A stretch of DNA of 43,347 bases from Bacillota bacterium (GCA_021786555.1 JAJYNB010000108.1:1-43347); one strand, 5' to 3'; shown: positions 1-43,347, numbered from the stretch's first letter. Notes: a model not told the origin generated them from the sequence alone. Made by a program: numbers and translations.

Positions 1-1
1 T

Positions 2-1084
2 CCGATCTTGCCCTATGAAAAGGAAGGCAGTATTAAGGGAACAGTTGTCAAGATTTACGAGGACCTGGATCAGCTGTCAGACGTTATGCAGCAGCTCAAC
101 CGCCTAAACATGCAGCTGAACTACTATAAGGATGAACTGCACAAGCTTAACGGCACCAGCTATACCATTGGCAATATTGTCTGTAACGACGACCGCTTGG
201 CAAAATTAAAAACCCAGGCCCTGCAAGTGGCGCGAAGCAACTCGACGGTGCTGATTACAGGTGAGAGCGGCACCGGCAAGGAATTGTTCGCCCATTCCAT
301 CCACAATGCTTCCCATCGGCGCAAGGAACCCTTCGTTAAGGTCAACTGCTCTGCTATACCGGCGGAGCTTGCCGAATCCGAACTTTTTGGCTATGATGAC
401 GGCGCATTCACCGGAGCGCGCAAGCAAGGCAAAGCCGGCAAATTTGAGCTGGCCAACGGGGGCACTATTTTCCTGGATGAAATCGGCGATATGCCCCTTG
501 CCTTACAAAGCAAACTGCTGCGGGTTATTCAGGAAAAGGAAATAGAAAGAGTAGGTAGTGTCAGGACCAGAAAGATTGACGTCAGAATCATCGCCGCTAC
601 CAACAAAGACTTAAAGCAGCTTGCTGTGGAAGGTAAGTTTAGAGAGGATCTGTATTTCAGATTAAACGTCATTGAGTTAAAGATTCCTCCCTTAAGGGAA
701 CGGAAGGAAGACATACCGGTCCTGGTGCAATCCTTCATCGGAAAATACAACAACCTGTTGTCAAAAAGGATTGCGGGCATCACAAGCGCCGCTTTGGAAG
801 CCCTGATGGAGTACCACTGGCCCGGTAATATCCGGGAGTTGGAAAACGTAATAGAACGGATTCTGAACTATCATGAGAGCGGTTATATCGATGTCCTGGA
901 TTTGCCTGAGGATACGAGATACGGGGAGAAAGCTGCTGTCAAAAAGGGCCGGAGCCTGGCGGCCATTGAGCGTGAAGCCATCCAACTGGCCTTAAACGAA
1001 GCCAAAGGAAACAAGTCTAAAGCGGCAAGACTCTTGGGGATAAGCAGATCGAAGCTATATGAAAAAATCTCCGAGTATCAGTAA
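2..1084 (+). CDS. sigma54-dependent transcriptional activator (enhancer-binding protein), 5'-truncated by the window edge
   Basis: AAA+ Walker A GESGTGKE. The sigma54-contact motif GAFTGA is encoded at nt 401-418. C-terminal Fis-type HTH ([19 protein letters not shown]). The frame is open to the window start, so the sensor domain is missing. Confidence 0.9.
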
Positions 1085-1136
1085 GGGTTTCAACGGGGGT
1101 TAGTGTCCAAGGTTGTCCTGATTGTGTCGATGTGAA

Positions 1137-1180
1137 ATGTCTGAAAAACATACAACTGTATGTTTTTCAGACATTTTTTC
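1137..1180 (+). terminator. Intrinsic terminator of the EBP gene; its arms are two inverted copies of the 17-mer TGTCTGAAAAACATACA
   Basis: Perfect inverted repeat atgtctgaaaaacata (1137-1152) / tatgtttttcagacat (1159-1174), followed by TTTTT. Confidence 0.7.
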
Positions 1181-1202
1181 CATACAAAGGGCACTTAATG
1201 AC

Positions 1203-1218
1203 TGGCATAGGAATTGCT
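1203..1218 (+). promoter_or_regulatory. sigma54 -24/-12 promoter candidate P1
   Basis: TGGCATaggaaTTGCT has the exact GG-N10-GC spacing of the TGGCAC-N5-TTGCW consensus. It lies downstream of an EBP gene and upstream of the Mo-enzyme operon. Confidence 0.7.
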
Positions 1219-1315
1219 TTATAAAAGGGTGCGGGGTTCAACTTGAACTCGCGAACTTCCCTGAAGGGGTTCCAATCAGCCCCCTTGCGAGATAGAAATT
1301 TATTTTTTGAACGAA

Positions 1316-1331
1316 GTCTGATTTTTCAGAC
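1316..1331 (+). promoter_or_regulatory. Compact dyad GTCTGA-TTTT-TCAGAC related to the 17-mer half-sites
   Basis: 6-bp perfect arms. Same GTCTGA/TCAGAC half-sites as the 1138-1173 palindrome. Sits 7 nt upstream of promoter candidate P1b. Confidence 0.35.
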
Positions 1332-1337
1332 CATGCC

Positions 1338-1353
1338 TGGTATATTTTTTGCT
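1338..1353 (+). promoter_or_regulatory. Second, weaker sigma54-like promoter candidate P1b
   Basis: TGGTATattttTTGCT has correct GG-N10-GC spacing but T instead of C at the fourth position. It is 197 nt upstream of the ATG at 1550, and the palindrome at 1138-1173 would sit about 165-200 nt upstream of it. Confidence 0.35.
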
Positions 1354-1549
1354 AGAAGTATTGGCTGCTGAGGAGGGATGTTAAAGAGGTTTTTGTTGAG
1401 GGAGCAAAATCTGGTGCGGTACCGTCCCAGGGCGCCTTGGGTATCCCCGTCTTGAGCCTGGAGAGCGCCTGTGGGGTCAAAAGCAGAATACAAATTTTTT
1501 GCAAAGGGGGAAAGTAACTGGGGTAACCGATAAACCCAGTGAAGAAATC

Positions 1550-3847
1550 ATGGAAGGTTACAGTGTTATAGGTAAAAGTGTTCCCAGGACAGATGCGTGG
1601 GACAAAGTAATAGGCAGGGCAGTGTACACCGAAGATATCAAACTGCCTAACATGCTTTACGGCAAGATACTGAGAAGTCCCCATGCGCATGCGCGCATCG
1701 TCAGCATCAATACCGAAAAGGCCGAGAAATTGCCCGGTGTCAAAATGGTGATGACCGGGAAGGACATCCTGCCGGTAAAGTATGGCATCGTGCCCTTTGC
1801 TCAGGACGAATACGGCCTGGCGATCGACAAAGTCCGCTACGTTGGAGATGATGTGGCCGCTGTGGCAGCAGTAGACGAAGCCACTGCTGCGGAAGCTTTG
1901 GAACTGATTGAAGTAGTGTACGAACCGCTGCCGGCAGTTTTCACCGTGGAAGATGCCATGAAAGACGGAGCTCCGGAGATCCACGAAGGCCCCAAAGTCA
2001 AGAACAACGTCAGCATCCAATACCGTAAGGAATTTGGCAGCATCGACAAAGGATTTGAAGAGTCCTTTCATATTCGGGAAGACGTTTTTAAGACCCATGG
2101 TCAGTACCATGCTCCGCTGGAACCCCATGCCGCGATTGCCATGTACGAGCCAAGCGGCAAACTCACCCTCTGGTCAAGCACCCAGATCCCCTTTTTCTTG
2201 AGGCACAACCTGGCCAGCACGCTGGGCATAACCGAAGACAGGGTGCGGGTTATCAAGCCGGTTGTGGGCGGCGGTTTCGGTGTGAAGATTGACATGTTCT
2301 CCAAAGACTTTTGTGCCGCTTTTATGTCCATGAAAACGGGCAGACCGGTTAAGATGGTCTATGACAGGGAAGAAGCGCTGACCTGCGTGCGCGGCAGACA
2401 TCCATCCATCGTCAAAGTGCGCACAGGGGTAGCTAAAGACGGCAGAATCATTTCCCAGTACATCGATTTGACCGTGGACGGCGGGGCCTATAACAGTACC
2501 GCTCCCCTGATTATCACCTTGTCAGGCTACTTCGCCATGATTCCTTACAACATTCCAAACCTGGTACTGGACGCCAAACACGTCTACACCAATAAATACG
2601 CTAATGGTGCTATGCGGGGCCACGGCGCTCCCCAGATGCGCTTCGCGGTGGAATCACAAATGGACATTCTGGCCGCGGATCTGGGTATGGACGCGCTGGA
2701 AATCCGCCGCATCAATGCGCTGGAAGCCGGCTGTGACCACCCGGCAAAGATGATTCTGCGCAGCTGCGGCTTCAAAGAGAGCTTAGACTTGGCTGCTAAT
2801 GCCATCGGCTGGAAAGAGAAACGCGGCAAGGGCAATTTCCGGGGTGTAGGCCTGGGTGGTTCCGGTTGGGCTTCCGGAGTAAATAACATGAGCCACATCG
2901 GCGGCGGCGCCGTGGTAAAACTCGAAAAGACCGGCGGCGTAACAGTGCTGACAGGAGCTGCGGACATTGGGCAGGGAGCGGAAAGCGTCATCGCCCAAAT
3001 CGTGGCGGAAGAACTCGGCGTATCCTTCGCGAAAGTAAGGGTCATCGCTGCGGATACCGACGTCTGCCCGCTGGACTCCGGCACCTTTGGCAGCGGCGTT
3101 ACGGTGCGTTCGGGCAAAGCGGCACAGCTGGCGGCCAGGGATATCAAGAAGCAAATCTTAACCGTGGTTGCCAAAAACATTGGAGGCGATCCTGAACATC
3201 TGACCATCAAAGACGACTATATCTGGCAAAACGGCCAGAAGAAGATGGACATCAACAAAGCTGTCAAACTGGTGCAGTATGCGGATATCCAAGTGCCGAT
3301 GATCGGGCGTGGCTATTATCAGCTGCCTGCCAAAGAGCCTACTACCCTCTTGAGGGATAACGGCGACATCTCAGGCTCCTATAGCTTTGGTACCCAGGCT
3401 GCGGAAGTGGAAGTGGACCCCAAATCCGGCCGGGTTAAGATCATCAAGATTGTGACTGCGGATGATGCCGGCAGGGCACTAAACCCGGATCAGGTGGAGG
3501 GCCAGGTCGAAGGAGCGGTAATGACGGGCTTGGGTCATACCTTGTTCGAAGATCCCGACTTCGACATGACCAACGGCCAGGCGCGCAGCACCTCTTTTAC
3601 GGATTACAAACTTCCCACCGCGCTTGACGCCCCTGACCAAGAAGTTATTCACATCGAGACTGACGATCCCGTAGGGCCTTTTGGCGCCAAGGAATGCGGC
3701 GAAGGCGCAACCATCTACACCGCGCCCGCCATCGTAAACGCAATTACAGACGCTATAGGCGTGAGAATCAATGATTTGCCGATTACTCCTGAAAAGATTC
3801 TGCGGGCTCTGGAAGAAAAAAACAATAAAGGGAGGAAGGAAGCATGA
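1550..3847 (+). CDS. Molybdopterin-binding large subunit, xanthine dehydrogenase family (4-hydroxybenzoyl-CoA reductase alpha-like)
   Basis: The N-terminus IGKSVPRTDAWDKVIGRAVYTEDI is typical of the family, and the 765 aa length fits. Start moved to the ATG at 1550 (MEGYSVIGKS); the ORF track start at 1499 is a TTG extension. Followed by FAD and 2Fe-2S subunit genes. Confidence 0.85.
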   Translation: MEGYSVIGKSVPRTDAWDKVIGRAVYTEDIKLPNMLYGKILRSPHAHARIVSINTEKAEKLPGVKMVMTGKDILPVKYGIVPFAQDEYGLAIDKVRYVGDDVAAVAAVDEATAAEALELIEVVYEPLPAVFTVEDAMKDGAPEIHEGPKVKNNVSIQYRKEFGSIDKGFEESFHIREDVFKTHGQYHAPLEPHAAIAMYEPSGKLTLWSSTQIPFFLRHNLASTLGITEDRVRVIKPVVGGGFGVKIDMFSKDFCAAFMSMKTGRPVKMVYDREEALTCVRGRHPSIVKVRTGVAKDGRIISQYIDLTVDGGAYNSTAPLIITLSGYFAMIPYNIPNLVLDAKHVYTNKYANGAMRGHGAPQMRFAVESQMDILAADLGMDALEIRRINALEAGCDHPAKMILRSCGFKESLDLAANAIGWKEKRGKGNFRGVGLGGSGWASGVNNMSHIGGGAVVKLEKTGGVTVLTGAADIGQGAESVIAQIVAEELGVSFAKVRVIAADTDVCPLDSGTFGSGVTVRSGKAAQLAARDIKKQILTVVAKNIGGDPEHLTIKDDYIWQNGQKKMDINKAVKLVQYADIQVPMIGRGYYQLPAKEPTTLLRDNGDISGSYSFGTQAAEVEVDPKSGRVKIIKIVTADDAGRALNPDQVEGQVEGAVMTGLGHTLFEDPDFDMTNGQARSTSFTDYKLPTALDAPDQEVIHIETDDPVGPFGAKECGEGATIYTAPAIVNAITDAIGVRINDLPITPEKILRALEEKNNKGRKEA

Positions 3848-4851
3848 CGCTGCCGGCTTTTGAATACCACCGTCCCAGCACTTTGAGTGAAGGCTTAAAA
3901 CTACTAAAGAATAACGCAGGTAAAACTCGACCCCTGGCCGGCGGAACCGACCTCTTGAACAACATGAAAGTTGGCTTGAACCCGGCGGAAGTTCTGGTAG
4001 ACCTTACTGGCATTGAGAGCCTATCGTCTATCGAATGCGCTGTAAACCAGCCTGTGAAGGTGGGCGCTGCGGCCACTATCTGGGATTTGGTGCAGCGCGC
4101 TGAAGTGAAAGAGAACCTTACCGCCCTTTATCAAGCGGGCTGCGGGGTGGGAGCTATCCAACTGCAGCAAATGGGTACCGTAGGCGGCAACCTCTGCCAG
4201 GACACCCGCTGTTGGTTTTATAACCAAACCAAGCACTGGCGCAGAGCGCGTCCATTATGCTACAAAACCGGCGGGGACCAATGCCTAGCGATGAAGAAGT
4301 CCGAAAGATGCCACGCTGCTTTTTGCAGTGATGTGGCGCCCGCTCTCATCGCTTACGATGCCACCGTCAAGCTGTCTTCGGCAGATGGTGAACGTGAAAT
4401 CTCACTGGCGGATTTTTACACCCGCGATGGCAAAACGTACAACGTTTTGCAAGCGGGAGAAATCCTCAGCGAAATAACGGTCCCAGCCGGCGCTTGGCAG
4501 ACGAAGAGCGCCTATGTTAAGCTGCGTTCCCGCAAGAGTATTGATTTTCCCCAGGCAGGCGTGGCTATTGCAGTGACAGAAGAAGGCGGCAAGTTGACCG
4601 GGGGCAAGCTGGTGCTTACCGCTCTGGGCAGCGGGCCCATGGACATCAAGGGGGCGGGCAACTTGTTTAAGGGGCTCAGCGTAGACAGCCTGGATGTGGA
4701 GAAGATCTCCTCCCTGGCCCGGGAGTGCGCGGCGGCAGCTGCCAACGATGTCCTGCCTGTGGCTAACATGACCTGGCGGCCTGCCTACCGGCGCAGGATG
4801 GTTGAAATCCTCATCGAGGAAAGTCTGAAAAAGATATTTATCAACAAGTAG
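3844..4851 (+). CDS. FAD-binding medium subunit with extra 4-Cys insertion loop (4-hydroxybenzoyl-CoA reductase beta-like)
   Basis: CODH/XDH FAD-binding fold (PLAGGTDL). Insertion CQDTRCWFYNQTKHWRRARPLCYKTGGDQCLAMKKSERCHAAFC. The ATGA overlap with the upstream stop indicates translational coupling. Confidence 0.85.
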   Translation: MTLPAFEYHRPSTLSEGLKLLKNNAGKTRPLAGGTDLLNNMKVGLNPAEVLVDLTGIESLSSIECAVNQPVKVGAAATIWDLVQRAEVKENLTALYQAGCGVGAIQLQQMGTVGGNLCQDTRCWFYNQTKHWRRARPLCYKTGGDQCLAMKKSERCHAAFCSDVAPALIAYDATVKLSSADGEREISLADFYTRDGKTYNVLQAGEILSEITVPAGAWQTKSAYVKLRSRKSIDFPQAGVAIAVTEEGGKLTGGKLVLTALGSGPMDIKGAGNLFKGLSVDSLDVEKISSLARECAAAAANDVLPVANMTWRPAYRRRMVEILIEESLKKIFINK

Positions 4852-4874
4852 CTAAACGAAAAAGGGGTGATATC

Positions 4875-5345
4875 ATGGCCACTAAACAAATAATAGTTTT
4901 AAATGTGAACGGCGACGATCACGAAATACTGGTTAAACCGCAGCAGACTCTGTTAGAGGTTCTGCGCGAGACGTTAGGATTTACCGGGACAAAACAGGGC
5001 TGTAACGAAGGTAGCTGCGGCGCCTGCACTGTACTCGTAAACAACAAGCCCACCCTTGCCTGCTCAACCCTTGCCGTGGCTGCTGTGGGTAAAGAGATAA
5101 TGACTATTGAAGGGTTGGCAGGGCAAGACGGGACTCTTCACCCAATCCAGAAATCTTTCGTGGAAAACGGCGCCATTCAATGCGGGTTCTGCACCCCAGG
5201 TATGGTGATGTCAACCAAAAGCTTGCTGGACAGAAATCCAAACCCCAGTGAAGAGGAAATCAAGGAGGGCCTCTCAGGCAACCTCTGCCGCTGCACCGGC
5301 TATGCCAAGATAATTAAGGCTGTCAAAGCCGTTGCAGCTGGGTAA
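4875..5345 (+). CDS. [2Fe-2S] small subunit of the molybdenum enzyme
   Basis: Plant-type motif CNEGSCGACTV plus second-cluster motif CGFCTPG...CRCTGY. 156 aa. RBS AAAGGGG upstream. Confidence 0.9.
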   Translation: MATKQIIVLNVNGDDHEILVKPQQTLLEVLRETLGFTGTKQGCNEGSCGACTVLVNNKPTLACSTLAVAAVGKEIMTIEGLAGQDGTLHPIQKSFVENGAIQCGFCTPGMVMSTKSLLDRNPNPSEEEIKEGLSGNLCRCTGYAKIIKAVKAVAAG

Positions 5346-5586: not shown

Positions 5587-5602
5587 TGGCATGGTATTTG
5601 CT
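5587..5602 (+). promoter_or_regulatory. sigma54 -24/-12 promoter candidate P2
   Basis: TGGCATggtatTTGCT, about 75 nt upstream of the ATG at 5676. Confidence 0.7.
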
Positions 5603-5675
5603 TCAATAATTCTCACAAGTTGAACCCTGATAGCAGGAAGCACTTACAGTAATGCTTAGCGGGAGGGACTGTGAT

Positions 5676-6428
5676 ATGAAATTTAAGGGGAAAGTTTGTA
5701 TTGTTACCGGGGCCTATGCCTGCATAGGCCGCGGCATCGCCTTGGGGTTGGCAAAGCAAGGAGCCAAGGTGGTCGTGGTTGATATCGACAGCGATAATGC
5801 CACAAGCGTTGCCAAAGAGATCGAAGAGCTTGGCACCAGCGCTATGGCCGCCCCGGCAGATATTACCAACAGTACGCAGATCAACGAAATCATCTCTAAG
5901 GCGATAGAGAAGTTTGGCAAAATAGATGTACTGGTGAATAATGTCGGGTGGAATAAGGTACAGCCCTTTGTGAACGGAAATGAAGAGTTTTGGGATAAGG
6001 TTCTAGGTATCAATCTAAAGGGTCCCATCATTTGCTGCCGGGCGGTAATTGACTCCATGATGCAGCAAAATTACGGCAAGATTGTAAACATTGCTTCCGA
6101 TTCAGGCCGCGTGGGTTCTACCGGAGAGGCAGTCTATTCAGCTGCCAAGGGCGGGGTAATCTCCTTTACCAAAACCCTGGCCAGAGAAATGGCCCGCTAC
6201 AAAATCAATGTGAACTGCATTTCACCGGGGCCCAGTGATACACCGTTTTTTGCCGCAGTTTCCGCAGACAATCCCAAGTTGATGGAAGCAGTGAAAAAGG
6301 CTATACCTTGGCGGCGTTTGGGAGAACCGGAAGACATTGCCAATGCGGTCTTGTTCCTGGCCTCGGACGATGCTGATTATATTACAGGCCAGACCTTAAG
6401 CGTCAGCGGCGGCCTTACCATGATGTAA
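5676..6428 (+). CDS. Short-chain dehydrogenase/reductase, 2-hydroxycyclohexanecarboxyl-CoA dehydrogenase (BadH)-like
   Basis: TGAxxxIG Rossmann motif and YSAAK catalytic motif. The stretches IVNIASDSGRVGSTGEAVYSAAKGG and GQTLSVSGGLTMM resemble BadH as I recall it. Start at the ATG at 5676 follows RBS GGGAGGGA. Confidence 0.7.
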   Translation: MKFKGKVCIVTGAYACIGRGIALGLAKQGAKVVVVDIDSDNATSVAKEIEELGTSAMAAPADITNSTQINEIISKAIEKFGKIDVLVNNVGWNKVQPFVNGNEEFWDKVLGINLKGPIICCRAVIDSMMQQNYGKIVNIASDSGRVGSTGEAVYSAAKGGVISFTKTLAREMARYKINVNCISPGPSDTPFFAAVSADNPKLMEAVKKAIPWRRLGEPEDIANAVLFLASDDADYITGQTLSVSGGLTMM

Positions 6429-6459
6429 ACCGGTAAGAAATTTGAGGAGGTTTTACGAT

Positions 6460-7245: not shown

Positions 7246-7275
7246 GGCCTGGCCGCAAAGAGGGGGTTTACAAGT

Positions 7276-10160: not shown

Positions 10161-10162
10161 GA

Positions 10163-27320: not shown

Positions 27321-27349
27321 CTTTGAATTCTGCCGGGGGGTGGCTGCCA

Positions 27350-31678: not shown

Positions 31679-31688
31679 AAGAATCTAT

Positions 31689-31721
31689 AGGTTAATAGGC
31701 GGCTCTGCCGCCTATTAACCT
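31689..31721 (+). other. 15-bp perfect intercistronic stem-loop between the binding-protein and permease genes (system 2)
   Basis: aggttaataggcggc-tct-gccgcctattaacct. No T-tract follows; the next RBS starts immediately after. Confidence 0.6.
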
Positions 31722-31734
31722 TAGGGGGAATACG

Positions 31735-32613: not shown

Positions 32614-32626
32614 AGAAGGGAAAAGT

Positions 32627-35044: not shown

Positions 35045-35093
35045 GACTCCGGCGCATTTAGTGGAAGCTGAGAAGTTTGAGGGAGCGGGCATA

Positions 35094-36878: not shown

Positions 36879-37484
36879 GTGTTGAATATTGTTATCAGCG
36901 GTGTAGGGGGGCAGGGCACGTTATTGGCAGCCAGGGCTATCGCCGAGGCTGCAATCTGCAAAGGTTTTGAGGTGAGGACCTCTGAAACCATCGGCATGGC
37001 CCAGCGGGAGGGCTCGGTGGTCAGTCATGTAAGGCTCGGCCATAATCTCAACGGCGCCCTAATACCGGACCACAAGGCGGACATTCTCTTGGGGTTTGAA
37101 CTGGCCGAAACTGTAAGAGCAATAGGCAAGCTCAAACCCGGAGGAGTAATCATCTCCAATACCCACCGGATAATGCCGGTGAGCGTCTCCTTGGGGAGTG
37201 CCGGCTATCGGAGTGACAAAATGATTTCCAGCCTGGCACAGGCAACTGACCGGCTGATTTTGCTGGATGCCACGCAAGCGGCCTCGAAGGCCGGCGGCTA
37301 CAAAAGCGCTAACGTAGTTCTGCTGGGAGTGCTTTCCGGGTTGCCTGAACTGCCCTTTCATCCTGCTGACCTTTGGCAAGCCATCATGCAGCACGTTTCA
37401 CCCCGCACCAGGCAGATCAATCAGGCGGCCTTTGAACTTGGGCAACGGATAATCGCTGAAAACAGAAACACTGTTTCCGGTTAG
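36879..37484 (+). CDS. iorB: Indolepyruvate:ferredoxin oxidoreductase beta subunit
   Basis: N-terminus ISGVGGQGTLLAARAI, 201 aa, directly after iorA. Confidence 0.85.
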   Translation: MLNIVISGVGGQGTLLAARAIAEAAICKGFEVRTSETIGMAQREGSVVSHVRLGHNLNGALIPDHKADILLGFELAETVRAIGKLKPGGVIISNTHRIMPVSVSLGSAGYRSDKMISSLAQATDRLILLDATQAASKAGGYKSANVVLLGVLSGLPELPFHPADLWQAIMQHVSPRTRQINQAAFELGQRIIAENRNTVSG

Positions 37485-37497
37485 GGGGTAAGAAACA

Positions 37498-38592
37498 ATG
37501 GAAGTAGCCATCATCGGCGGAGGAAACGGCGCTTACGCAGCAGCGGCTGATCTGGCGGAGAAAGGGCACAGGGTACGCCTGTGGCGAAGGAGCGCGGCAG
37601 AGCTGGGCACTCTTCTCGAGACCGGTGTGCTCAGACTACAGGATTTTAGAGGGGTACGCGAGGTTCAGCTGTCACTGGTAAGCCAGGATTTAGCTTGCGT
37701 TATTAAGGGCGCCCAGTTGATTATTGTGCCTTTGCCAGCCACGGCTCAGGAGTCAGTTTCAGAAAACTTGGCGCCATATCTGGAGGACGGTCAGGTAATT
37801 TATCTGACCCCGGGAAGCTTCGGCAGTTATGTGATGTCCAGGGTGCTGCGTTCCAAAGGGTGCAGGGCAGAGGTGGTGTTTGCCGAATCTGGTACTCTGC
37901 CCTATTTGGCCCGCAAGCACGCTCCTCAGACGGTGGTAATCTCCGGCCGGACCACCCGTCTTCCCACCGGAGTATTTCCCAGCAGCAAATCAGAGTATGG
38001 TTTTCCCATTCTGAAGGAAGTATTTCCTGCGGTGGAACCTCTGGTTGACGCTCTGGATGGAGCACTGATGAATGCCGGCCCGATTATCCATCCACCCCTG
38101 ATATTGTTGAATGCCGGACCTATAGAGCATTTTGAAAAATGGGATATTCACAACGAAGGCACACAGCCCTCCATTCGCCGGGTTCATGACGCATTGGATG
38201 CGGAACGGATCGAGGTGCGTCGTAAACTCGCTTACCCCGGCCCCCATTTTCCCCTGGCAGACCACTATGCCACAGAAGGGGAGGAATGGATGTACGGACG
38301 GGCAGCCCACGAAAAGCTGGTTGACAGCACCGACTGGCATGAACATCTGGACCTGCAGACCCACCGCTATATGCGGGAGGATGTGGCCTGTGGGCTGGCA
38401 CTACTGGTATCGGTCTCCGACTGGGCGGGTGTGCCGGCCCCGATGGCCCACGGTCTGCTGGCTGTCGCTTCGGCTGTGGCGGGAGAGGATTTAAGGGCTA
38501 CAGGCAGGACGTTGGAGAACCTTGGTTTGGCAGCTAAGACGCGGGAAGAGATGCGGCAGCTGTTGACAAACGGAATTGGGTTTGGCCTATGA
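37498..38592 (+). CDS. NAD(P)-dependent octopine/nopaline (opine) dehydrogenase-family oxidoreductase
   Basis: N-terminal Rossmann motif VAIIGGGNGAYAAAADLAEKGHRV. Length and helical C-terminal half fit that family. The assignment is by recollection of family features only. Confidence 0.55.
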   Translation: MEVAIIGGGNGAYAAAADLAEKGHRVRLWRRSAAELGTLLETGVLRLQDFRGVREVQLSLVSQDLACVIKGAQLIIVPLPATAQESVSENLAPYLEDGQVIYLTPGSFGSYVMSRVLRSKGCRAEVVFAESGTLPYLARKHAPQTVVISGRTTRLPTGVFPSSKSEYGFPILKEVFPAVEPLVDALDGALMNAGPIIHPPLILLNAGPIEHFEKWDIHNEGTQPSIRRVHDALDAERIEVRRKLAYPGPHFPLADHYATEGEEWMYGRAAHEKLVDSTDWHEHLDLQTHRYMREDVACGLALLVSVSDWAGVPAPMAHGLLAVASAVAGEDLRATGRTLENLGLAAKTREEMRQLLTNGIGFGL

Positions 38593-39578
38593 GAGAGAAC
38601 AAACCGGCCATAGCCGTAGTAGGACCCGGACGGATGGGAAACGGCATATCACAAGTCTTTGCCTATACAGGGTTTAGGGTTGACCTGATTGACATCAAGC
38701 AGCGGCCCAAGGCAGAGGCACAAACCGCTCTGGCTGCTGCAGCAAGCCAAATTCAGGGGAATCTGGAGTTTTTGGGGTCCCTGGGCTTGCTTCCGCCTGA
38801 GAGCGTGGAGAGCATCGCCCGGCGGATTAACTATCATGAACGCAAAGACGCCGCAGCGGCCCTTGCCGGGGCTCACGTGGTTTTCGAGGCCGTGCCTGAG
38901 GTACTGGAAATCAAGCAAGCCGCCTTTACTGAGATTGCCTCTGCGGTTGCCCCGGACACTCTCATTTCATCCACAACCTCGACATTTTTGGTGAATGAAT
39001 TGGCCGGGTATGTTCCTAACCCTGAGCGGTTTATGAATACCCACTGGCTCAATCCGGCTTATCTCATTCCAATTGTTGAAGTAAGCCCCGGGAGGGAAAC
39101 CAGCCCTTTGGCGCTGGAAAAAATGATTGGATTGCTGGAAAGCGCAGGTAAGGTGCCTATCAAGTGTTCCGCCTCCCCGGGGTTCATTGTGCCGCGCATC
39201 CAGACCCTCGTGATGAATGAAGCCGCCCGCCTGATTGAAGAAGGGGTAGCCACACCCGCGGAGGTGGACAAGGCATCACGCTTGGGGTTTGGCCTGCGCT
39301 TTGCAATTCTTGGTTTACTCGAGTTTATTGATTGGGGCGGTGGGGATATTCTCTATTATGCCGCCAACTATCTGCAATCTGCCTTACAGGACCAGCGTTT
39401 TGCGCCGCCGGCTATTATCAGCAGCAACATGCGTGAAGGTAGGATTGGCATGAAGTCCGGGCAGGGTTTTTACGATTTCAGCCAGGTGGATGTACTGCAG
39501 TATCAGCGGGACACCATCAAGAAGTTTGTGGATCTGCTGCAGCATCTGGGGCTGATGGCGCTGCCTGAAATCCAGTAG
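38589..39578 (+). CDS. 3-hydroxyacyl-CoA dehydrogenase (NAD-binding)
   Basis: IAVVGPGRMGNGISQV Rossmann motif. Typical core motifs (SSTTSTF, NTHWLNPAYLIPIVEV, PGFIVPRI). ATGA overlap with the upstream gene. Confidence 0.8.
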   Translation: MRENKPAIAVVGPGRMGNGISQVFAYTGFRVDLIDIKQRPKAEAQTALAAAASQIQGNLEFLGSLGLLPPESVESIARRINYHERKDAAAALAGAHVVFEAVPEVLEIKQAAFTEIASAVAPDTLISSTTSTFLVNELAGYVPNPERFMNTHWLNPAYLIPIVEVSPGRETSPLALEKMIGLLESAGKVPIKCSASPGFIVPRIQTLVMNEAARLIEEGVATPAEVDKASRLGFGLRFAILGLLEFIDWGGGDILYYAANYLQSALQDQRFAPPAIISSNMREGRIGMKSGQGFYDFSQVDVLQYQRDTIKKFVDLLQHLGLMALPEIQ

Positions 39579-39631: not shown

Positions 39632-39765
39632 CCGTTTAGGCTGAAAAGGTCAACCGTTTGGGTTTGGTTTTGTAGGTTTGCAACAAACCAGCGCTGATTA
39701 TTCGTTGATTAATCCATATACAAAAGGAAAGCGCACTGGCTAGAATGTAAATAGGCTGAATATTC
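39632..39765 (+). promoter_or_regulatory. Promoter/operator region B (colinear with region A at 30159-30311)
   Basis: CCGTTTAGG at 39632, CCGTTTGG at 39654, TTTGCA at 39677, TAGAAT at 39741 and GAATATTC at 39758. The anchor spacings are identical to region A. Confidence 0.5.
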
Positions 39766-39791
39766 TCACAACAGGAAGAGAGGAGATGTAT

Positions 39792-40685
39792 ATGTCGCGT
39801 CACAAGGTGGTGATTTCCCTGCCGGAAGCCGCCGCGATGATAAAGGATGGAGACCGGGTGGGTATCGGTGGCTTTGTCACCACCAACAAGCCCTTGGGGA
39901 TACTGCGAGAGATTATGCGCCTGCGGCGACAGGATTTGACAGTTGTTGCACCACCCTCAAGCATGGAAGTTGACTTACTTCTGGGGCTGGGAATGGTTAG
40001 GAAACTGATAACCCCATACCTGGGTGCTGAGGCTATCGCACCCCTCGGGCCTTTTCACAGCGGTTGGGCCGGAAAACACTTTGCGATTGAAGAGACAGAC
40101 CTGGGTACCCTGGTGGCGGGACTGCGCGCATATGCCCTGGCGCTGCCCTTTATGCCCACCCGAGGTATAGTGGGCACGTCGATTGCCAGCCTGAATCCAA
40201 CTTTGCGCCCTGTAGAAGATCCTTTTGGCGGTCCGCCCTTAATCGCAGTGCCGCCACTGGAAATGGATGTAGTCCTGATCCACGCCAGCCAAGCGGACTG
40301 TTACGGCAACGTACAGCACTTGGGTGCGGTGTTTCTCGACCCGTTGCTGGCCCAGGCCGGCAAAAAAGTCATCGTCCAGGTGGAAAAAATTGTTTCCTCG
40401 GAAGAAATCCGCCGCAACCCGGGAAATACCACCCTTGCCTGTGAGTTTGTTGATGCCGTGGTCCTGGCGCCCTACGGCGCCCATCCCATGGCGTCTCAAA
40501 ACTACTACCGGGTAGATGCAGACTTTCTCAACGAGTATGTGCGGGTGGCCAAGGCCTGTGTCAAAGGTCAGCCTGAGCAGTTTGAGGAATTTGTGGCCAG
40601 ATACATCGATGCTCCCGCCGGGCTTAGCGAGTACCTGGAGAGGGTTGGCCTGGAAAGACTATTTGCCTTGGGGGAGGGAGCTTAA
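39792..40685 (+). CDS. Family I CoA-transferase subunit A (glutaconate CoA-transferase GctA-like)
   Basis: N-terminus SLPEAAAMIKDGDRVGIGGF, 297 aa, followed by a B subunit. The ATG at 39792 follows RBS GAGAGGAG. Confidence 0.75.
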   Translation: MSRHKVVISLPEAAAMIKDGDRVGIGGFVTTNKPLGILREIMRLRRQDLTVVAPPSSMEVDLLLGLGMVRKLITPYLGAEAIAPLGPFHSGWAGKHFAIEETDLGTLVAGLRAYALALPFMPTRGIVGTSIASLNPTLRPVEDPFGGPPLIAVPPLEMDVVLIHASQADCYGNVQHLGAVFLDPLLAQAGKKVIVQVEKIVSSEEIRRNPGNTTLACEFVDAVVLAPYGAHPMASQNYYRVDADFLNEYVRVAKACVKGQPEQFEEFVARYIDAPAGLSEYLERVGLERLFALGEGA

Positions 40686-40687
40686 AC

Positions 40688-41467
40688 ATGCAGGCTACAG
40701 CAAAGGAATTGGCAGCAATTTTCATAGCCCGGCAAATCAACAATGGTGATTACATATCCCTTGGCACCAATTTGCCTGTTCCGGCTGCGGGGGTACTATT
40801 GGCGCAGATAACCCATGCGCCCGATGCCAAAATCAACGTGCTGAGCTATTTCGTCAACCTGGCGGGCATGGACAGTTTCCCGGACTTAGGCCAGATTGCC
40901 AACCCCAGTGTGGTGCGGTGGGCAGACGGGGTTATGCCGGTAGAGCAACTGATTTACGGCATCCGGCGCATGGACCTGTGCTTTGCCGGCGGGATCCAGA
41001 TCGACCGCTACGGAAATACCAATCTGATCGGTATCGGAGATGACCCTCAGAACCTGAAATTCCGCGGTCCGGGCAGCGTAGGTACCGCCACAGTGATGGC
41101 CAATTGCCGCAAATTCTTCATCTATACCAACGATCATTCACCCCGCACGTTCGTTCCCAAGTGTGATTTCATTTCCGCTTTTGGTTGGGGGGACGGAGGA
41201 GCAGACAGCAGAACCAGGCTGGGACTGCCCGGCGAGGGACCGCGCTTTGTCATAACCCCCAAGGCAATAATGGATTTTGACGAAACCAGCAAGGCTATGC
41301 GGTTAAAGCACCTCCTGCCTGGGACCAGTCTGGAGGAGCTGCAGGCAAGCGCGGGCTTTGAACTACTGGTCCCGGACCAACTGCCGGAGATGGAACCCCC
41401 CAGCGCGGAAGAGCTCAGTCTGCTGCGCACCAGGGTGGATGCCAAAGGGTACCTGCGGCAGACCTAA
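40688..41467 (+). CDS. Family I CoA-transferase subunit B
   Basis: 259 aa. Starts 2 nt after the subunit A stop. Composition is typical of beta subunits (GGIQIDRYGNTNL). Confidence 0.75.
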   Translation: MQATAKELAAIFIARQINNGDYISLGTNLPVPAAGVLLAQITHAPDAKINVLSYFVNLAGMDSFPDLGQIANPSVVRWADGVMPVEQLIYGIRRMDLCFAGGIQIDRYGNTNLIGIGDDPQNLKFRGPGSVGTATVMANCRKFFIYTNDHSPRTFVPKCDFISAFGWGDGGADSRTRLGLPGEGPRFVITPKAIMDFDETSKAMRLKHLLPGTSLEELQASAGFELLVPDQLPEMEPPSAEELSLLRTRVDAKGYLRQT

Positions 41468-41543
41468 GGCAGATTTCCATACCAGCTTCGGATGCAAGCA
41501 TGAAAAACGCTAGTCATGGGTCGGCAGGGGCAGTCGGGTGAAT

Positions 41544-41569
41544 GTGTCATGGGGACGCGTACACTGACA
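41544..41569. repeat. Degenerate solo copy of the MITE terminal repeat
   Basis: gtgtcatggggacgcgtacactgaca versus gtgtcagggggacgggtacactgaca: 24/26 identical. Confidence 0.6.
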
Positions 41570-41584
41570 GTAACTTTAGAGAGT

Positions 41585-41699
41585 GTGTGTCAGGGGGACG
41601 GGTACACTGACACTAGCTTAACCGAGTGGGAAGAGGGACTGCAGTCAGTGAAACGGTAAGAAAGGTTGGGCTGTCAATGTACCTGTCCCCCTGACACTA
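41585..41699. repeat. MITE-like element copy 1 (115 nt, 26-bp terminal inverted repeats)
   Basis: Left end gtgtcagggggacgggtacactgaca (41587-41612). Right end tgtcaatgtacctgtccccctgacac (41672-41697), which is 24/26 complementary to the left end. No coding capacity. Confidence 0.8.
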
Positions 41700-41938
41700 T
41701 TTGACCCGTGCTTTGACAAATCCGCCGCCAGCCGGGGTCCCCGCGAAATCTTTGCCCCAAATTGTGCTAGACGATTTCGTGGGGTGGACGAGGGGATTCC
41801 TTGGCTGACGGTCAGCACGGCGGCTTGGACTACCAGAACCGGGAAAAATTTTGCTCCGGAAACATTCAGCCTCCCTGAAGCAGCTAAATCTTTCGGGTAA
41901 CGTTTTTCATAATAGTTGATGCTGCCACAGGTTCATTG

Positions 41939-42053
41939 GTGTGTCAGGGGGACGGGTACACTGACACTAGCTTAACCGAGTGGGAAGAGGGACTGCAGTC
42001 AGTGAAACGGTGAGAAAGGTTGGGCTGTCAATGTACCTGTCCCCCTGACACTA
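41939..42053. repeat. MITE-like element copy 2 (115 nt), direct orientation
   Basis: 114/115 identical to copy 1, with a single A/G difference in aaacggtRagaaagg. Confidence 0.8.
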
Positions 42054-42108
42054 AGAAATTCTGTGGAAGAGTAGTTGCTAACTGGATAGAGAAAGGAGTG
42101 GTTTGAGG

Positions 42109-43347
42109 ATGGTGGACGCCAGTAAGGATTTAGAGGAAGCTTTACATGAGTGGTACCTAAAGAACGGCGTGGACCACTACCCTGTGGTGTCGACCAGCGG
42201 CGGCCTGCCTGTAAAGGCCCTGTATACCCCGCTGGAAACGGCAGGAACAGAATATATTGAGAAAATCGGCCTTCCGGGCGAGTACCCCTTTACCAGGGGA
42301 GTATACCCGCTGATGTACCGCAGCAAGGTTTGGACCATGCGCCAGTACTCGGGCTATGCCACGGCCAAGGAAAGCAACGAACGCAACAAATTCCTTTATC
42401 AGCAGGGAGTGACCGGGTTAAGTGTGGCTTTCGATTTGCCCAGCCAGATGGGGTACGACTCAGACGACCCGGAAATCGTGGATGAGGTCGGCAGGGTCGG
42501 AGTAGCTATCGATACCCTGGCCGACATGGAATTATTGTTTAAAGACATACCCCTGGATCAGATCAGCACATCATTTACCATCAACGCCATCACCCCGATA
42601 ATCCTGGCCATGTATATCGCGGTGGGCGAGAAGCAGGGGATTCCCCGGGCCAAGCTTACCGGAACGGTGCAGAACGATATCCTGAAAGAGTACTTTTCCC
42701 GCGGAGCATTTATCTTCCCGCCCCGCCCAGCCCTGCGCATGATAGCGGACACATTTAGTTTTTGCAGCCAGGAGATGCCCAAGTTTGTGCCGGTCAGCGT
42801 TTGCGGCTATCACATCCGGGAAACCGGAGCGGACGCGGTGCAGGAGATCGCTTACGCCTTTCTCAACGCCATGGCTTACATAGATGAGGCCCTGGCCAGG
42901 GGGCTGAACATTGATGACTTTGCGTCGAGGATCAGCTTTAACTTTGCCGCCCACATGAACCTGTTTGAAGAGGTTGCCAAATTCCGGGCTGCCAGGCGCA
43001 TCTGGGCCAGGCTCTTGCGCGAACACTATCAGGCCAAAAACCCCAAGTCGTGGAAGATGCTGTTCTTTGCCGGCACGGGCGGCAGCACCTATACCGCGCA
43101 GCAACCGGAGAACAATATCGTGCGCGGCACGATTGAAACCTTGGCCATAGTATTAGGCGGCGGACAGGCGCTTACTGTAAATACCAAAGACGAAGGTCAT
43201 GCCATCCCCTCGGCAAAGGCAACCCTTACCGCCTTGCGCACGCAGCAGCTTGTGGCCCTGGAGTCCGGGGTGACGGACACAGTCGACCCTCTGGGCGGGT
43301 CCTATTACATTGAGAGCCTGACTGATGGAATGGAAGCAAGCATTCTG
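42109..43347 (+). CDS. Methylmalonyl-CoA mutase-family (coenzyme B12-dependent acyl-CoA mutase) catalytic subunit, 3'-truncated by the window edge
   Basis: Absent from the ORF track because no stop lies in the window. My own translation gives YPFTRGVYPLMYRSKVWTMRQYSGYATAKESN, GLSVAFDLPSQMGYDSDDP, GTVQNDILKEY and CGYHIRETG, colinear with MutB as I recall it. The ATG at 42109 follows GAAAGGAG/TGAGG. Confidence 0.85.
   Translation, partial: MVDASKDLEEALHEWYLKNGVDHYPVVSTSGGLPVKALYTPLETAGTEYIEKIGLPGEYPFTRGVYPLMYRSKVWTMRQYSGYATAKESNERNKFLYQQGVTGLSVAFDLPSQMGYDSDDPEIVDEVGRVGVAIDTLADMELLFKDIPLDQISTSFTINAITPIILAMYIAVGEKQGIPRAKLTGTVQNDILKEYFSRGAFIFPPRPALRMIADTFSFCSQEMPKFVPVSVCGYHIRETGADAVQEIAYAFLNAMAYIDEALARGLNIDDFASRISFNFAAHMNLFEEVAKFRAARRIWARLLREHYQAKNPKSWKMLFFAGTGGSTYTAQQPENNIVRGTIETLAIVLGGGQALTVNTKDEGHAIPSAKATLTALRTQQLVALESGVTDTVDPLGGSYYIESLTDGMEASIL

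Follow-up and report, generated by a model that had tools for sequence, protein, structure and literature searches.

Organization of the Island

Does a co-directional run of genes for anaerobic aromatic-acid breakdown encode one pathway or several? The question is raised by a 43-kb stretch of DNA (the window, meaning the whole stretch analyzed) whose host is an uncultured, strictly anaerobic, Gram-positive, Peptococcaceae / Desulfitobacteriaceae-like bacterium. A sequence-only reading had described one co-directional, composite block. The block is indeed composite, and each enzyme family on that reading's module list was recovered at the family level by profile and PDB matches. All of the ∼37 genes lie on the plus strand, as does every feature given below, and GC skew is positive across the whole window, a combination that fits leading-strand bias and not a single operon. 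Co-directionality holds, but at least seven transcription units and four regulators are found within the window, and terminators between genes set units apart (15670–15691, 22429–22449, 24615–24639, 24731–24753, and 30138–30154). Judged from its sequence, the island is a mosaic of separately regulated modules for the breakdown of aromatic and ring-shaped acids; we favor its interpretation as a leading-strand catabolic island with several separately controlled modules, rather than one operon.

It is decidedly unlikely that the whole island forms one continuous pathway that needs no benzoyl-CoA reductase to mineralize tryptophan or indoleacetate. Such a pathway would have the part resembling the anaerobic indoleacetate (iaa) cluster deliver 2-aminobenzoyl-CoA, which the HcrABC-type enzyme would reductively deaminate; and/or an NCR-like OYE and an ATC-hydrolase-like protein would reduce/deaminate the ring to 2-oxocyclohexanecarboxyl-CoA, to be opened by the BadI-like hydrolase. 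All parts do lie on one contig. Benzoyl-CoA reductase genes are absent from the window, as the earlier reading had it, and likewise from the next 15 kb (about 58 kb together), which is also in keeping with such a pathway. The differences in regulators and terminators between the units argue against it.

The HcrABC-Type Cassette and the BadH/BadI/AbfD Module

The window opens within the gene for a sigma54 enhancer-binding activator (8–1084; Pfam Sigma54_activat, E = 1.5e-72); the C-terminal 358 aa remain, with the AAA+ domain, lid, and Fis-type HTH, and the sensor domains are lost to the window start. Full-length orthologues, 77–80% identical, carry CBS and PAS domains; in relatives, their neighbor is the Hcr cassette or, alternatively, the BadH/BadI/AbfD module. 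In the region 1135–1218, a perfect hairpin (1135–1180) followed by a T-run, a candidate terminator of the activator gene and/or putative activator binding site, precedes a sigma54 −24/−12 box, TGGCATAGGAATTGCT (1203–1218). L087 (5540) and L089 (9715) have an equivalent box at the corresponding site, and sigma54 boxes are kept at orthologous sites in five loci. The 4-hydroxybenzoyl-CoA-reductase-type Mo enzyme (HcrABC-type, 1499–5345) comprises alpha (1499–3847), beta (3844–4851), and gamma (4875–5345) subunits. Alpha and beta have 1rm6_A (E = 5e-151) and 1rm6_B (E = 9e-59) as best PDB matches; the best NCBIfam matches, TIGR03194 and TIGR03195, are under cut-off. The beta subunit retains the ∼40-residue insertion, with all four cysteines of the extra [4Fe-4S] loop (Cys122, Cys138, Cys146, and Cys155). 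Activator and cassette would together provide a ferredoxin-dependent aryl-CoA reductase that takes off a ring 4-hydroxy or possibly an amino group. Hcr-annotated proteins of Desulfatiglans anilini are induced by 4-aminobenzoate and aniline, and a 4-aminobenzoyl-CoA reductase has been proposed there (PMC7500099), a point in favor of the continuous pathway.

Orthologues of the cassette (alpha 85–87%) occur in two other contexts, making three with this window. The orthologue in L087, directly beside HydAB, would also favor the continuous pathway; it is the only such contig, however, and the junction may be a chimeric assembly. In L089 the cassette has BcrAD/BadFG-type ATPase genes and BenE in its vicinity, as is conventional for benzoyl-CoA metabolism; this argues against that pathway and lends something to another, the Tyr / 4-hydroxyphenylacetate route offered as an alternative by the earlier reading. 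There, IorAB would form 4-hydroxyphenylacetyl-CoA; chain shortening would lead to 4-hydroxybenzoyl-CoA, from which HcrABC would remove the hydroxy group. The IorAB family accepts arylpyruvates, and a genuine 4-HBCR-type enzyme with its Fe-S loop is present in the window. We nonetheless consider this route very improbable: no alpha-oxidation genes support it, those for phenylacetyl-CoA:acceptor oxidoreductase and phenylglyoxylate oxidoreductase being absent from the window and the next 15 kb; IorAB is predicted to share transcription and regulation with the mutase cluster rather than with Hcr; and the hydantoinase, Mo hydroxylase, and mutase would be left without a role.

A second −24/−12 box, TGGCATGGTATTTGCT (5587–5602), lies upstream of the BadH-like gene. 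The core of this alicyclic / beta-oxidation-like module (5652–8703) consists of a BadH-like SDR (5652–6428), a BadI/MenB-like crotonase (6442–7245), and an AbfD-type [4Fe-4S]/FAD dehydratase (7276–8703). For the first two genes (5652–7245) these are the top NCBIfam matches, but under the equivalog cut-offs; the third matches 1u8v (E = 7e-115) and conserves Cys99, Cys103, His292, and Cys299. With the enoyl-CoA hydratase (ECH) encoded nearby (10430–11215), these enzymes would hydrate, oxidize, and hydrolytically open an alicyclic acyl-CoA, or beta-oxidize a hydroxylated acyl-CoA. Orthologues of the three proteins (76/70/84% in Desulfosporosinus; 77/82–86/85% in L139/L140) form stand-alone clusters, and the Desulfosporosinus clusters have an orthologous sigma54 box ahead of the module (L001, 5345; L003, 5331; L048, 5327). 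The module is alone in Desulfosporosinus, L138, and L139/L140, and no iaa-like gene was found within 10 kb of it in five relatives, which counts against the continuous pathway. On this gene context, the module is independent of the iaa-like cluster. In relatives, BadH/BadI/AbfD behaves as an independently regulated unit that does not co-occur with the rest, the outcome that the earlier reading had named as speaking against it; this does not apply to the OYE unit and probably not to the Hcr cassette.

Beyond this core, profile matches identify a divergent PaaK-family CoA ligase (8799–10160) with a conserved small partner ORF (∼10211–10417; together 8799–10417). Paradesulfitobacterium aromaticivorans has a 71% orthologue of the ligase; a small ORF (54% identical) and a Liv transporter come after it, and Bad and Hcr genes are absent from the vicinity. 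The ECH gene is followed by a 50-aa remnant of a second hydratase (crotonase; 11387–11536) and by a gene for an AMP-binding protein that has no C-terminal subdomain (called 11479–12615, with 11584 the probable start). L138 shows the same succession of ECH, ECH2, and a short AMP-binding gene.

Uptake, Two-Component, and OYE Units

A fused 2Fe-2S and MoCo enzyme of Mop / Se-XDH architecture, with no FAD subunit (12638–15505), falls under every equivalog cut-off; the intrinsic terminator after it (15670–15691) is strong. An uptake/activation unit follows (15990–22449), with a first Liv-type ABC transporter (15990–20751), a FadD-like acyl-CoA ligase (20772–22403), and the terminator at 22429–22449. 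The pairing of Liv and ligase is also seen beside AbfD homologues in several archaeal loci. The PaaK-like ligase and small ORF, the Mop-like enzyme, and Liv1 with FadD would contribute extra uptake, activation, and oxidation functions. The earlier reading had counted both Mo enzymes of the window (Hcr-type and Mop-type) as iaa members, along with the SDR, the crotonases, and the PaaK ligase at 8799. They sit instead in sigma54-controlled units, and in Desulfosporosinus and other Clostridia their orthologues stand alone: no gene of the iaa-like type lies within 10 kb. A two-component system (22586–24753) comes next, composed of an OmpR-type response regulator (22586–23299) and a histidine kinase (23305–24582) and closed by the terminators at 24615–24639 and 24731–24753.

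The sigma54-dependent OYE unit (24838–28195) has a −24/−12 box (24838–24853) and genes for an NCR-like OYE/FadH reductase (24878–26869), a 142-aa protein (26892–27320), a 59-aa Cys4 zinc-ribbon ORF (27350–27529), and an ATC_hydrolase-family protein (27632–28195). The nearest solved structure to the reductase is 2-naphthoyl-CoA reductase (6qkg, E = 1.5e-124). Desulfosporosinus sp. BICA1-9 has the four genes (76/52/60/66% identical) and the same sigma54 box beside its iaa-like cluster; this second linkage indicates that the unit travels with the cluster. Its enzymes probably work on a CoA-ester intermediate of the iaa-like cluster. The tie in two genomes would suit the continuous pathway as well; against that pathway, the OYE promoter has upstream motifs unlike those at the two other sigma54 promoters, and we know of no precedent for OYE-type reduction of a monocyclic aryl-CoA.

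The iaa-like Cluster

The last third of the window, from 28.3 kb to its end, is probably the first half of a ∼30-kb iaa-like cluster encoding a variant of the anaerobic indoleacetate pathway. It begins with a GAF / GGDEF-like / PucR-HTH regulator (called start 28309, end 30108; terminator 30138–30154) that is 70% identical to the regulator inside the Paradesulfitobacterium ferrireducens cluster. The feeder operon (30199–39578) encodes a second Liv transporter (SBP 30437–31678, rest 31735–35044), IorA (35094–36878, over the TIGR03336 cut-off), IorB (36882–37484), an octopine-DH-like enzyme (37498–38592), and a 3-hydroxyacyl-CoA dehydrogenase (HCDH; 38589–39578); the last two are 75% and 62% identical, respectively, and syntenic in P. 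ferrireducens. The core operon starts within the window (39653–43347) with a family-I CoA-transferase (alpha 39792–40685, beta 40688–41467), two MITE-like insertions (41585–41699 and 41939–42053), and the large subunit of a B12 acyl-CoA mutase (42109–43347, cut by the window; full protein 551 aa). A promoter/operator-like motif is common to the Liv2-IorAB operon (30199) and the CoA-transferase operon (39653).

An overlapping public contig carries on with a B12-binding subunit, SucCD-like genes, a caprolactamase-like hydantoinase A/B, a V4R protein, an ADP-forming acyl-CoA synthetase, a second PaaK-type ligase (only 33% identical to that at 8799), an XDH-type Mo hydroxylase, and a thiolase. The FAD subunit of this Mo enzyme lacks the Hcr-type Fe-S loop. 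The sequence-only reading was correct that an iaa-like gene set is combined with IorAB in this genome, and that the window has no hydantoinase-like genes, although these lie ∼4 kb past its end. It had looked too early for the Mo and ligase members: the Mo hydroxylase, PaaK-type ligase, and hydantoinase A/B that are syntenic with the mutase and CoA-transferase are all beyond the window.

From CoA-transferase to thiolase, the core is found in the same order, at 70–88% identity, in P. ferrireducens. L086/L088 largely keep the conserved core, but their Mo enzyme close to the cluster is only distantly paralogous. The core of Desulfosporosinus BICA1-9 is partly deleted; only CoA-transferase to HydA is left, and a deletion has fused HydB to an ACAD. 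The feeders upstream differ: IorAB here, a class-III aminotransferase with AlaDH and AOR in L086, and a TRAP transporter in L085. Three feeders onto the same core fit an arylacetate / arylacetyl-CoA entry point.

HydA and HydB score highest against caprolactamase CapA/CapB (659 and 315 bits), above acetophenone carboxylase subunits. This raises the prospect, unlikely in our judgment, of a 3' cluster that attacks some other lactam or N-heterocyclic compound, or whose genes are juxtaposed without a functional relation. HydAB would then act as a lactamase on an aliphatic lactam or a compound resembling oxoproline, and ordinary succinate / methylmalonyl-CoA metabolism would account for the mutase, SucCD, and CoA-transferase. 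Also in favor of this reading, the SucD-like subunit clears the succinate-CoA ligase cut-off, and the mutase keeps the MCM-type carboxylate-binding Tyr (RQYSGY) and Arg (FSRGAF), in contrast to the Ile and Gln of HcmA. The mutase scores 561 bits, well under the 876-bit MCM equivalog cut-off, a shortfall that, with the lack of a methylmalonyl-CoA epimerase or carboxyltransferase, argues against this reading. So do the tight, conserved synteny with the XDH-type hydroxylase, PaaK-type ligase, and thiolase-DUF35 / MaoC / SDR / ACAD set, and the feeders (IorAB, or amine transaminase and AOR), which supply arylacetyl units. The thiolase-DUF35 / MaoC / SDR / ACAD set is associated with aryl-substituted acyl-CoAs.

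For the preferred indoleacetate reading, the comparison is with Aromatoleum, for whose pathway Ebenau-Jehle reportedly described Mo-hydroxylase and hydantoinase-like steps in 2012. Published accounts (PMC8360864; PMC11659651) give steps by the IaaB ligase, the IaaL transferase, the IaaGH mutase, and the IaaF dehydrogenase, as well as beta-oxidation, and the 3' cluster agrees in chemical logic. Against this reading, the best solved relative of the mutase is a 2-hydroxyisobutyryl-CoA mutase, the CoA-transferase here is of family I, whereas Aromatoleum IaaL is of family III, and the ACAD of the relatives' clusters has an ordinary YEG motif in place of GGG in IaaF (PMC8360864; PMC11659651). The absence of an IaaL-type transferase from the cluster and of an IaaF-type dehydrogenase from the relatives' clusters would favor the other-lactam reading. 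We infer the link to iaa from family content and chemical logic.

Proposed Route for Indoleacetate

Gene context suggests the following route. Indolepyruvate would be converted to indoleacetyl-CoA by IorAB (the window has no tryptophan aminotransferase), or the PaaK-type ligase encoded downstream would activate imported indoleacetate. Hydroxylation at C2 by the XDH-type Mo enzyme would give the oxindole, and the caprolactamase-like hydantoinase A/B would open the lactam in an ATP-dependent step to (2-aminophenyl)succinyl-CoA. After the thioester had been moved or renewed by the CoA-transferase and the SucCD-like enzyme, the B12 mutase would form (2-aminobenzyl)malonyl-CoA. No decarboxylase for the malonyl-CoA intermediate was identified, which, like the missing aminotransferase, weighs against the route; decarboxylation would be followed by beta-oxidation (ACAD, MaoC hydratase, SDR/HCDH, and thiolase-DUF35) to 2-aminobenzoyl-CoA and acetyl-CoA.

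A Firmicute Gene Set Resembling the Anaerobic Indoleacetate Cluster

Judged from gene context in metagenome assemblies, the window is a real mosaic catabolic island, and its most informative part is a predicted Firmicute variant of the anaerobic indoleacetate (iaa) gene set, although the window covers only one half of that set. Pfam and NCBIfam scans detected every family named in the sequence-only reading. That reading had likened the block to the iaa cluster of Aromatoleum and Azoarcus; the resemblance holds for the 3′ end of the window and the DNA past it, but not for the window genes on which it had been based. The window's PaaK-like ligase (8799–10160) is a paralogue, 33% identical, of the PaaK-type ligase in the cluster proper, and belongs to another unit.

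Looking up the HCDH protein returned a 59,877-bp metagenome contig from ENA; it overlaps the window and continues past the window end, and a second look-up extended the view. Beyond the mutase large subunit, this contig encodes a 140-aa B12-binding subunit, SucC-like and SucD-like proteins, and then HydA (686 aa) and HydB (559 aa). The last two start ∼4 kb past the window end, so the claim that hydantoinase-like genes are missing is correct inside the window and fails beyond it. A V4R protein, an ADP-forming acyl-CoA synthetase, and a second PaaK-type ligase follow HydAB. Further along are a three-subunit XDH-type Mo enzyme (FAD subunit, 293 aa; 2Fe-2S subunit, 170 aa; MoCo subunit, 758 aa), whose FAD subunit has no Hcr-type loop, and a thiolase.

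This arrangement is conserved in relatives. In Paradesulfitobacterium ferrireducens, the XDH-type Mo enzyme is syntenic and 60%–81% identical. The syntenic set as a whole (60%–88%) comprises the OcDH-like protein, HCDH, PaaK-type ligase, PucR regulator, α and β subunits of the CoA-transferase and mutase, HydA, HydB, V4R protein, Mo enzyme, and thiolase, and the cluster there continues with zf-ChsH2/DUF35, MaoC, SDR, and ACAD genes. Two JGI contigs (L086 and L088) carry the CoA-transferase, mutase, SucCD, HydAB, V4R protein, and thiolase at 69%–90% identity; the Mo enzyme near their cluster is a distant paralogue (36% for the FAD subunit). Desulfosporosinus sp. BICA1-9 has kept the CoA-transferase through HydA (75%–84%), and the thiolase end is absent. 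The BICA1-9 copy appears to be decaying; at its locus (L131–L134, 12065–16093), a deletion has joined HydB to the C-terminal portion of an ACAD, and a tungsten AOR gene is split in two.

HydA and HydB gave their best matches to caprolactamase CapA/CapB (659 and 315 bits). Acetone or acetophenone carboxylase was rejected as an assignment because the carboxylase subunits scored far lower, HydB is only 559 aa long, and there is no carboxylase γ subunit. The mutase, with large and small subunits, conserves the MCM-type carboxylate-binding Tyr (RQYSGY) and Arg (FSRGAF), unlike HcmA or ICM, which points to a substituted succinyl- or malonyl-CoA substrate. A 2-hydroxyisobutyrate pathway was considered because the best solved relatives of the 8799 ligase and the mutase are 2-hydroxyisobutyryl-CoA synthetase and mutase. 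It was rejected because HcmA has Ile and Gln at the Tyr and Arg positions, the ligase scores equally against PaaK, and 32 kb separates the two genes, which belong to different units. The PaaK-family ligase of the cluster (428 aa; 73% identical in P. ferrireducens) scored 416 bits against TIGR02155, below the cut-off. IorA exceeded the TIGR03336 cut-off (785 versus 651 bits), and the top matches of the adjacent IorB were IOR β models, below their cut-offs. Combination of an iaa-like set with IorAB, as the sequence alone had suggested, is real and, among the genomes examined, specific to this one.

A Predicted Indoleacetate-Type Pathway

The enzyme set of the cluster fits an anaerobic indoleacetate pathway in which we infer every catalytic step. 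The PaaK-type ligase would activate the acid to indoleacetyl-CoA; with IorAB in the operon, the CoA ester could also arise directly from indolepyruvate. The XDH-type hydroxylase would place a hydroxyl adjacent to the ring nitrogen, giving a lactam that the putative ATP-dependent lactamase HydAB would open to (2-aminophenyl)succinyl-CoA. After a CoA transfer step, the B12 mutase, acting on the carboxylated CoA ester, would produce (2-aminobenzyl)malonyl-CoA. Decarboxylation and a β-oxidation set suited to bulky substrates would then lead to 2-aminobenzoyl-CoA. The order of activation, arylsuccinyl-CoA rearrangement, decarboxylation, and β-oxidation is that of the iaa pathway, in which IaaB is the ligase and IaaGH the two-subunit mutase (PMC8360864; PMC11659651).

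The genes that precede the core differ among loci. In the window they encode IorAB and a Liv transporter. In L086 and L088 their products are a class-III aminotransferase, alanine dehydrogenase, and tungsten AOR, and in P. ferrireducens a TRAP transporter. These three predicted feeders (oxoacid, amine, and free acid) would meet at arylacetate or arylacetyl-CoA, which provides an independent argument for an indoleacetate-type pathway. The pathway that Ebenau-Jehle set out in 2012 reportedly includes a Mo-hydroxylase step next to the ring nitrogen and a hydantoinase-like lactam opening.

Likeness to the iaa operon of Aromatoleum aromaticum and Azoarcus evansii (Ebenau-Jehle 2012; Schuhle 2016, 2021) was judged from family content and chemical logic. 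Both have a PaaK-family CoA ligase, predicted here to act on an aryl acetate, together with a Mo hydroxylase of the XDH family, hydantoinase A/B-like genes, a CoA-transferase, β-oxidation enzymes, and a Liv-type binding protein. Both also have a two-subunit B12 mutase, whose predicted substrate here is a carboxylated acyl-CoA. The shared logic would be hydroxylation beside the ring nitrogen, lactam opening, arylsuccinyl-CoA rearrangement, and β-oxidation. IaaL is a family III (Frc) phenylsuccinyl-CoA transferase (PMC11659651). No transferase of that type was found here; the sole CoA-transferase belongs to family I (PF01144) and has two subunits, and SucCD-like genes lie next to it. In IaaF-type decarboxylating dehydrogenases, GGG replaces the YEG motif (PMC8360864), whereas the ACADs of the relatives (L086, 17393–18529; P. 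ferrireducens, partial at the locus end) read IMQIYEGTNQ and so retain YEG. Thiolase-DUF35, MaoC, and SDR genes stand in place of the fused hydratase-dehydrogenase of the iaa operon. Also unlike that operon, the regulator is of the PucR-GAF type, IorAB is part of the operon, and a σ54-controlled NCR-like OYE unit, a V4R protein, and OcDH-like proteins are associated; the host, unlike the iaa hosts, is Gram-positive. Given the family I transferase, the YEG-type ACAD, and a likeness drawn from families and logic, we regard the set as one that probably works like iaa and not as an established member.

Indoleacetate is a plant hormone and a metabolite of tryptophan. To our knowledge, its anaerobic breakdown has been characterized biochemically only in denitrifying Betaproteobacteria (Aromatoleum and Azoarcus). 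In the literature consulted, clusters related to iaa are predicted only in a few other Proteobacteria (sulfate reducers and Rhodopseudomonas palustris) and in archaea (PMC8360864). A conserved Firmicute version would extend the distribution of the pathway to a form that has neither IaaL- nor IaaF-type enzymes, with IorAB as its direct feeder and a link to an NCR-like reductase. Such a version would also imply that the two most unusual iaa enzymes, IaaL and IaaF, are replaceable. Cultured organisms for a test are available in P. ferrireducens and Desulfosporosinus spp.

Transcription Units and Regulators of the Window

The sequence-only reading treated the stretch as one co-directional, composite block. 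Its single orientation stands, as all of the ∼37 genes lie on the + strand; the single block does not. GC content is 49%–57%, and GC skew is positive along the entire length. Together with the shared strand, this fits a leading-strand segment of a Firmicute chromosome, so that co-directionality is insufficient to demonstrate a single operon. On the + strand, strong intrinsic terminators follow the Mop-like gene (12638–15505; terminator at 15670), the FadD-like ligase that ends the first Liv unit (15990–22449; terminator at 22429), the histidine kinase (24615 and 24731), and the PucR-type regulator (28309–30108; terminator at 30138). A perfect hairpin and T-run lies 3′ of the activator gene. 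The window encodes four regulators: a σ54 activator, an OmpR/kinase pair, and a GAF-PucR protein. From these signals, the window is predicted to comprise at least seven transcription units rather than one operon, and the composite character of the block is borne out in the form of separately regulated modules.

Intergenic σ54 −24/−12 boxes of the form TGGCAT-N5-TTGCT occur on the + strand just 5′ of the Hcr α gene (1203), the BadH-like gene (5587), and the OYE gene (24838). Three matches in the window are not above chance expectation; five related loci, however, have matching boxes at the orthologous sites. A TGTC..GACA-type palindrome is common to the Hcr and BadH-like promoters. Activator sites shared by all three promoters were considered and rejected, since the OYE promoter carries a different repeated motif.

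A 36-nt motif, AACCGTTTGGSTTKGGTTT..TTTGC.ACAAA, is found on the + strand at 30199, 5′ of the Liv2-IorAB operon (30199–39578), and at 39653, 5′ of the CoA-transferase operon. This shared motif scored 30, whereas the highest score among 500 shuffles was 26, and the region upstream of the CoA-transferase is conserved in three relatives. Both observations are compatible with one regulon under the PucR-type protein, of which the motif is likely to be the operator. A search of the whole window against Rfam at gathering thresholds detected no structured RNA and hence no B12 riboswitch 5′ of the mutase.

The gap between the CoA-transferase and mutase genes has been widened by MITE-like copies to 641 nt here, compared with ∼55 nt in relatives. 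The element (within 41544–42053) is 115 nt long with 26-nt terminal inverted repeats (GTGTCAGGGGGACGGGTACACTGACA) and is present as two copies, 99% identical, at 41585–41699 and 41939–42053, with a solo arm at 41544–41569. It folds as a hairpin of −63.7 kcal/mol (z = −7.5).

The Hcr Cassette and the OYE Unit

The Hcr-type Mo enzyme (1499–5345) has three subunits, and 4-hydroxybenzoyl-CoA reductase was the top match for both α (PDB 1rm6_A, E 5e-151) and β (1rm6_B, E 9e-59). The β subunit (335 aa) aligns through the enzyme-specific insertion and keeps all four cysteines of the extra [4Fe-4S] loop of 1rm6_B (Cys122, Cys138, Cys146, and Cys155). The α-β-γ gene order and this loop are those of Thauera aromatica HcrABC (1rm6). 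In contrast to the T. aromatica enzyme, the subunits here fall below the equivalog cut-offs (TIGR03194, 735 versus 994.6 bits; TIGR03195, 268 versus 404.6; TIGR03193, 194 versus 257.8), and the genes form an apparently σ54-controlled, portable cassette seen in three neighborhoods. Orthologues elsewhere are 79%–80% identical for the activator and 85%–87%, 71%, and 80%–82% for the subunits. The cassette lies directly 5′ of HydAB in one locus (L087); in another (L089), it has BcrAD/BadFG-type ATPase genes on one side and a BenE transporter on the other. The Tyr/4-hydroxyphenylacetate route to 4-hydroxybenzoyl-CoA, which had been put forward as the alternative, is improbable because the α-oxidation enzymes that it requires are absent from the window and the next 15 kb. 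In Desulfatiglans anilini, Hcr-annotated proteins are induced by 4-aminobenzoate (PMC7500099).

Contigs L086 and L087, from different samples, are 100% identical over >12 kb from 118 nt 5′ of HydA and unrelated further upstream (position 9883); beyond this point, one has SucCD and the other (L087) the Hcr cassette. Strain variation, duplication, and chimeric assembly could each account for the Hcr-HydA junction of L087.

The closest solved relative of the OYE (unit at 24838–28195) is 2-naphthoyl-CoA reductase (NCR) of culture N47 (6qkg; 420 bits, compared with 288 for 2,4-dienoyl-CoA reductase), and the two have the same FMN/Fe-S/FAD domain layout. Unlike the N47 enzyme, the window OYE has no naphthalene (thn) genes around it; its links are to the iaa-like cluster and an ATC_hydrolase-family protein. 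The OYE, a 142-aa protein, a 59-aa Cys4 zinc-ribbon ORF, and the ATC_hydrolase-family protein recur in BICA1-9 (76%, 52%, 60%, and 66% identity) with the same σ54 box. There the unit lies 3′ of the iaa-like cluster, and here it lies 5′; a link that persists in both arrangements points to a common function. The 142-aa protein (26892–27320, +), which precedes the zinc-ribbon ORF (27350–27529, +), gave no family match, and its single-sequence AlphaFold model was unusable (pLDDT 49.6).

The σ54-HcrABC cassette and the OYE unit are candidate genes for removal of the amino group of aminobenzoyl-CoA or for ring reduction. Taken furthest, this idea would have the island of a Gram-positive anaerobe convert tryptophan or indoleacetate all the way to aliphatic CoA esters, independently of benzoyl-CoA reductase, which we consider improbable. 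2-Aminobenzoyl-CoA would be handled in either or both of two ways: the 4-HBCR-type enzyme would act as its reductive deaminase, or the NCR-type OYE and an ATC-hydrolase-like deaminase would yield 2-oxocyclohexanecarboxyl-CoA for the BadI-like ring hydrolase. We know of no gene yet assigned to anaerobic 2-aminobenzoyl-CoA deamination, for which the island would, if this were true, supply candidates.

The BadH/BadI/AbfD Module

The BadH-like and BadI-like proteins (module at 5652–8703) bear these names as top NCBIfam matches only, far under the cut-offs (281 versus 431 bits for TIGR03206; 271 versus 468 bits for TIGR03210), and the latter scores almost as high against MenB (262 bits). As in the benzoate/cyclohexanecarboxylate pathway of R. 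palustris (BadK/BadH/BadI), genes for a crotonase hydratase, an SDR, and a MenB/BadI-type crotonase lie side by side. The R. palustris pathway has no AbfD-type dehydratase, whereas the module here and in relatives always has one. This HpaB-family protein matches Clostridium aminobutyricum AbfD (1u8v, E 7e-115) over its full length and conserves the [4Fe-4S] ligands Cys99, Cys103, His292, and Cys299 (CIQRC and HRHSYTGC align with CFQRC and HRQSYGGC). Unlike the C. aminobutyricum gene, it sits in a BadH/BadI/ECH module and not in a 4-aminobutyrate or 4-hydroxybutyrate cluster. The module would carry out hydration, oxidation, and hydrolytic C–C cleavage of an alicyclic 2-enoyl or 2-oxo acyl-CoA, and the AbfD-type enzyme would remove or shift a γ-hydroxyl or double bond.

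A scan of species genomes found AbfD homologues of 55%–66% identity in Asgard archaea, Bathyarchaeia, Chloroflexota, and many other anaerobes. The family was rejected as a marker of the module because it is too broad; a Bad-like context occurred only with homologues ≥84% identical. In three Desulfosporosinus genomes and at loci L138 and L139/L140, the nearest BadH/BadI/AbfD orthologues share a cluster with additional crotonases, HCDH, and an acyl-CoA ligase; in the Desulfosporosinus genomes, the module follows a 77%-identical activator. No Hcr or iaa-like gene was found within 10 kb of the module at any of these loci. A single pathway may run through all modules of the window, in view of the aminobenzoate response of D. 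anilini and of the association that both the OYE unit and the Hcr cassette show with the iaa-like core; the Bad-like module, however, occurs independently, which speaks against such a pathway. A full-text literature search for the BadI, AbfD, and Hcr combination and for catabolic genes of Paradesulfitobacterium found nothing.

Compared with its relatives, the module in the window is rearranged: it has no HCDH, which theirs include, an insertion behind the AbfD-type gene brings in the PaaK-like ligase and a small partner ORF, and the Mop-like Mo enzyme follows. In P. aromaticivorans, the ligase and small ORF pair is found beside a Liv transporter only. The small ORF (∼10211–10417, +; ∼70 aa), directly 3′ of the ligase, is conserved, unannotated, and without a Pfam match; it is 54% identical to its counterpart after the orthologous ligase in P. 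aromaticivorans (L135, 11347–11577) and 48% identical to that in a Chloroflexi MAG (L136). A 50-aa crotonase remnant (within 11387–12615, +) is 72%–76% identical to the N terminus of the full genes in L138–L140. The AMP-binding gene that follows it has no C-terminal subdomain. Because its L138 counterpart (316 aa, 52% identical) is also short, shortness here may mark a functional form and not decay. In Desulfosporosinus nitroreducens (L001, 174–2829), a second σ54 box followed by 4-hydroxybutyrate-CoA-transferase-family and Amidohydro_2 genes lies just 5′ of the activator of the module, a hint that a lactonase- or decarboxylase-type step precedes activation of the free-acid substrate by CoA transfer.
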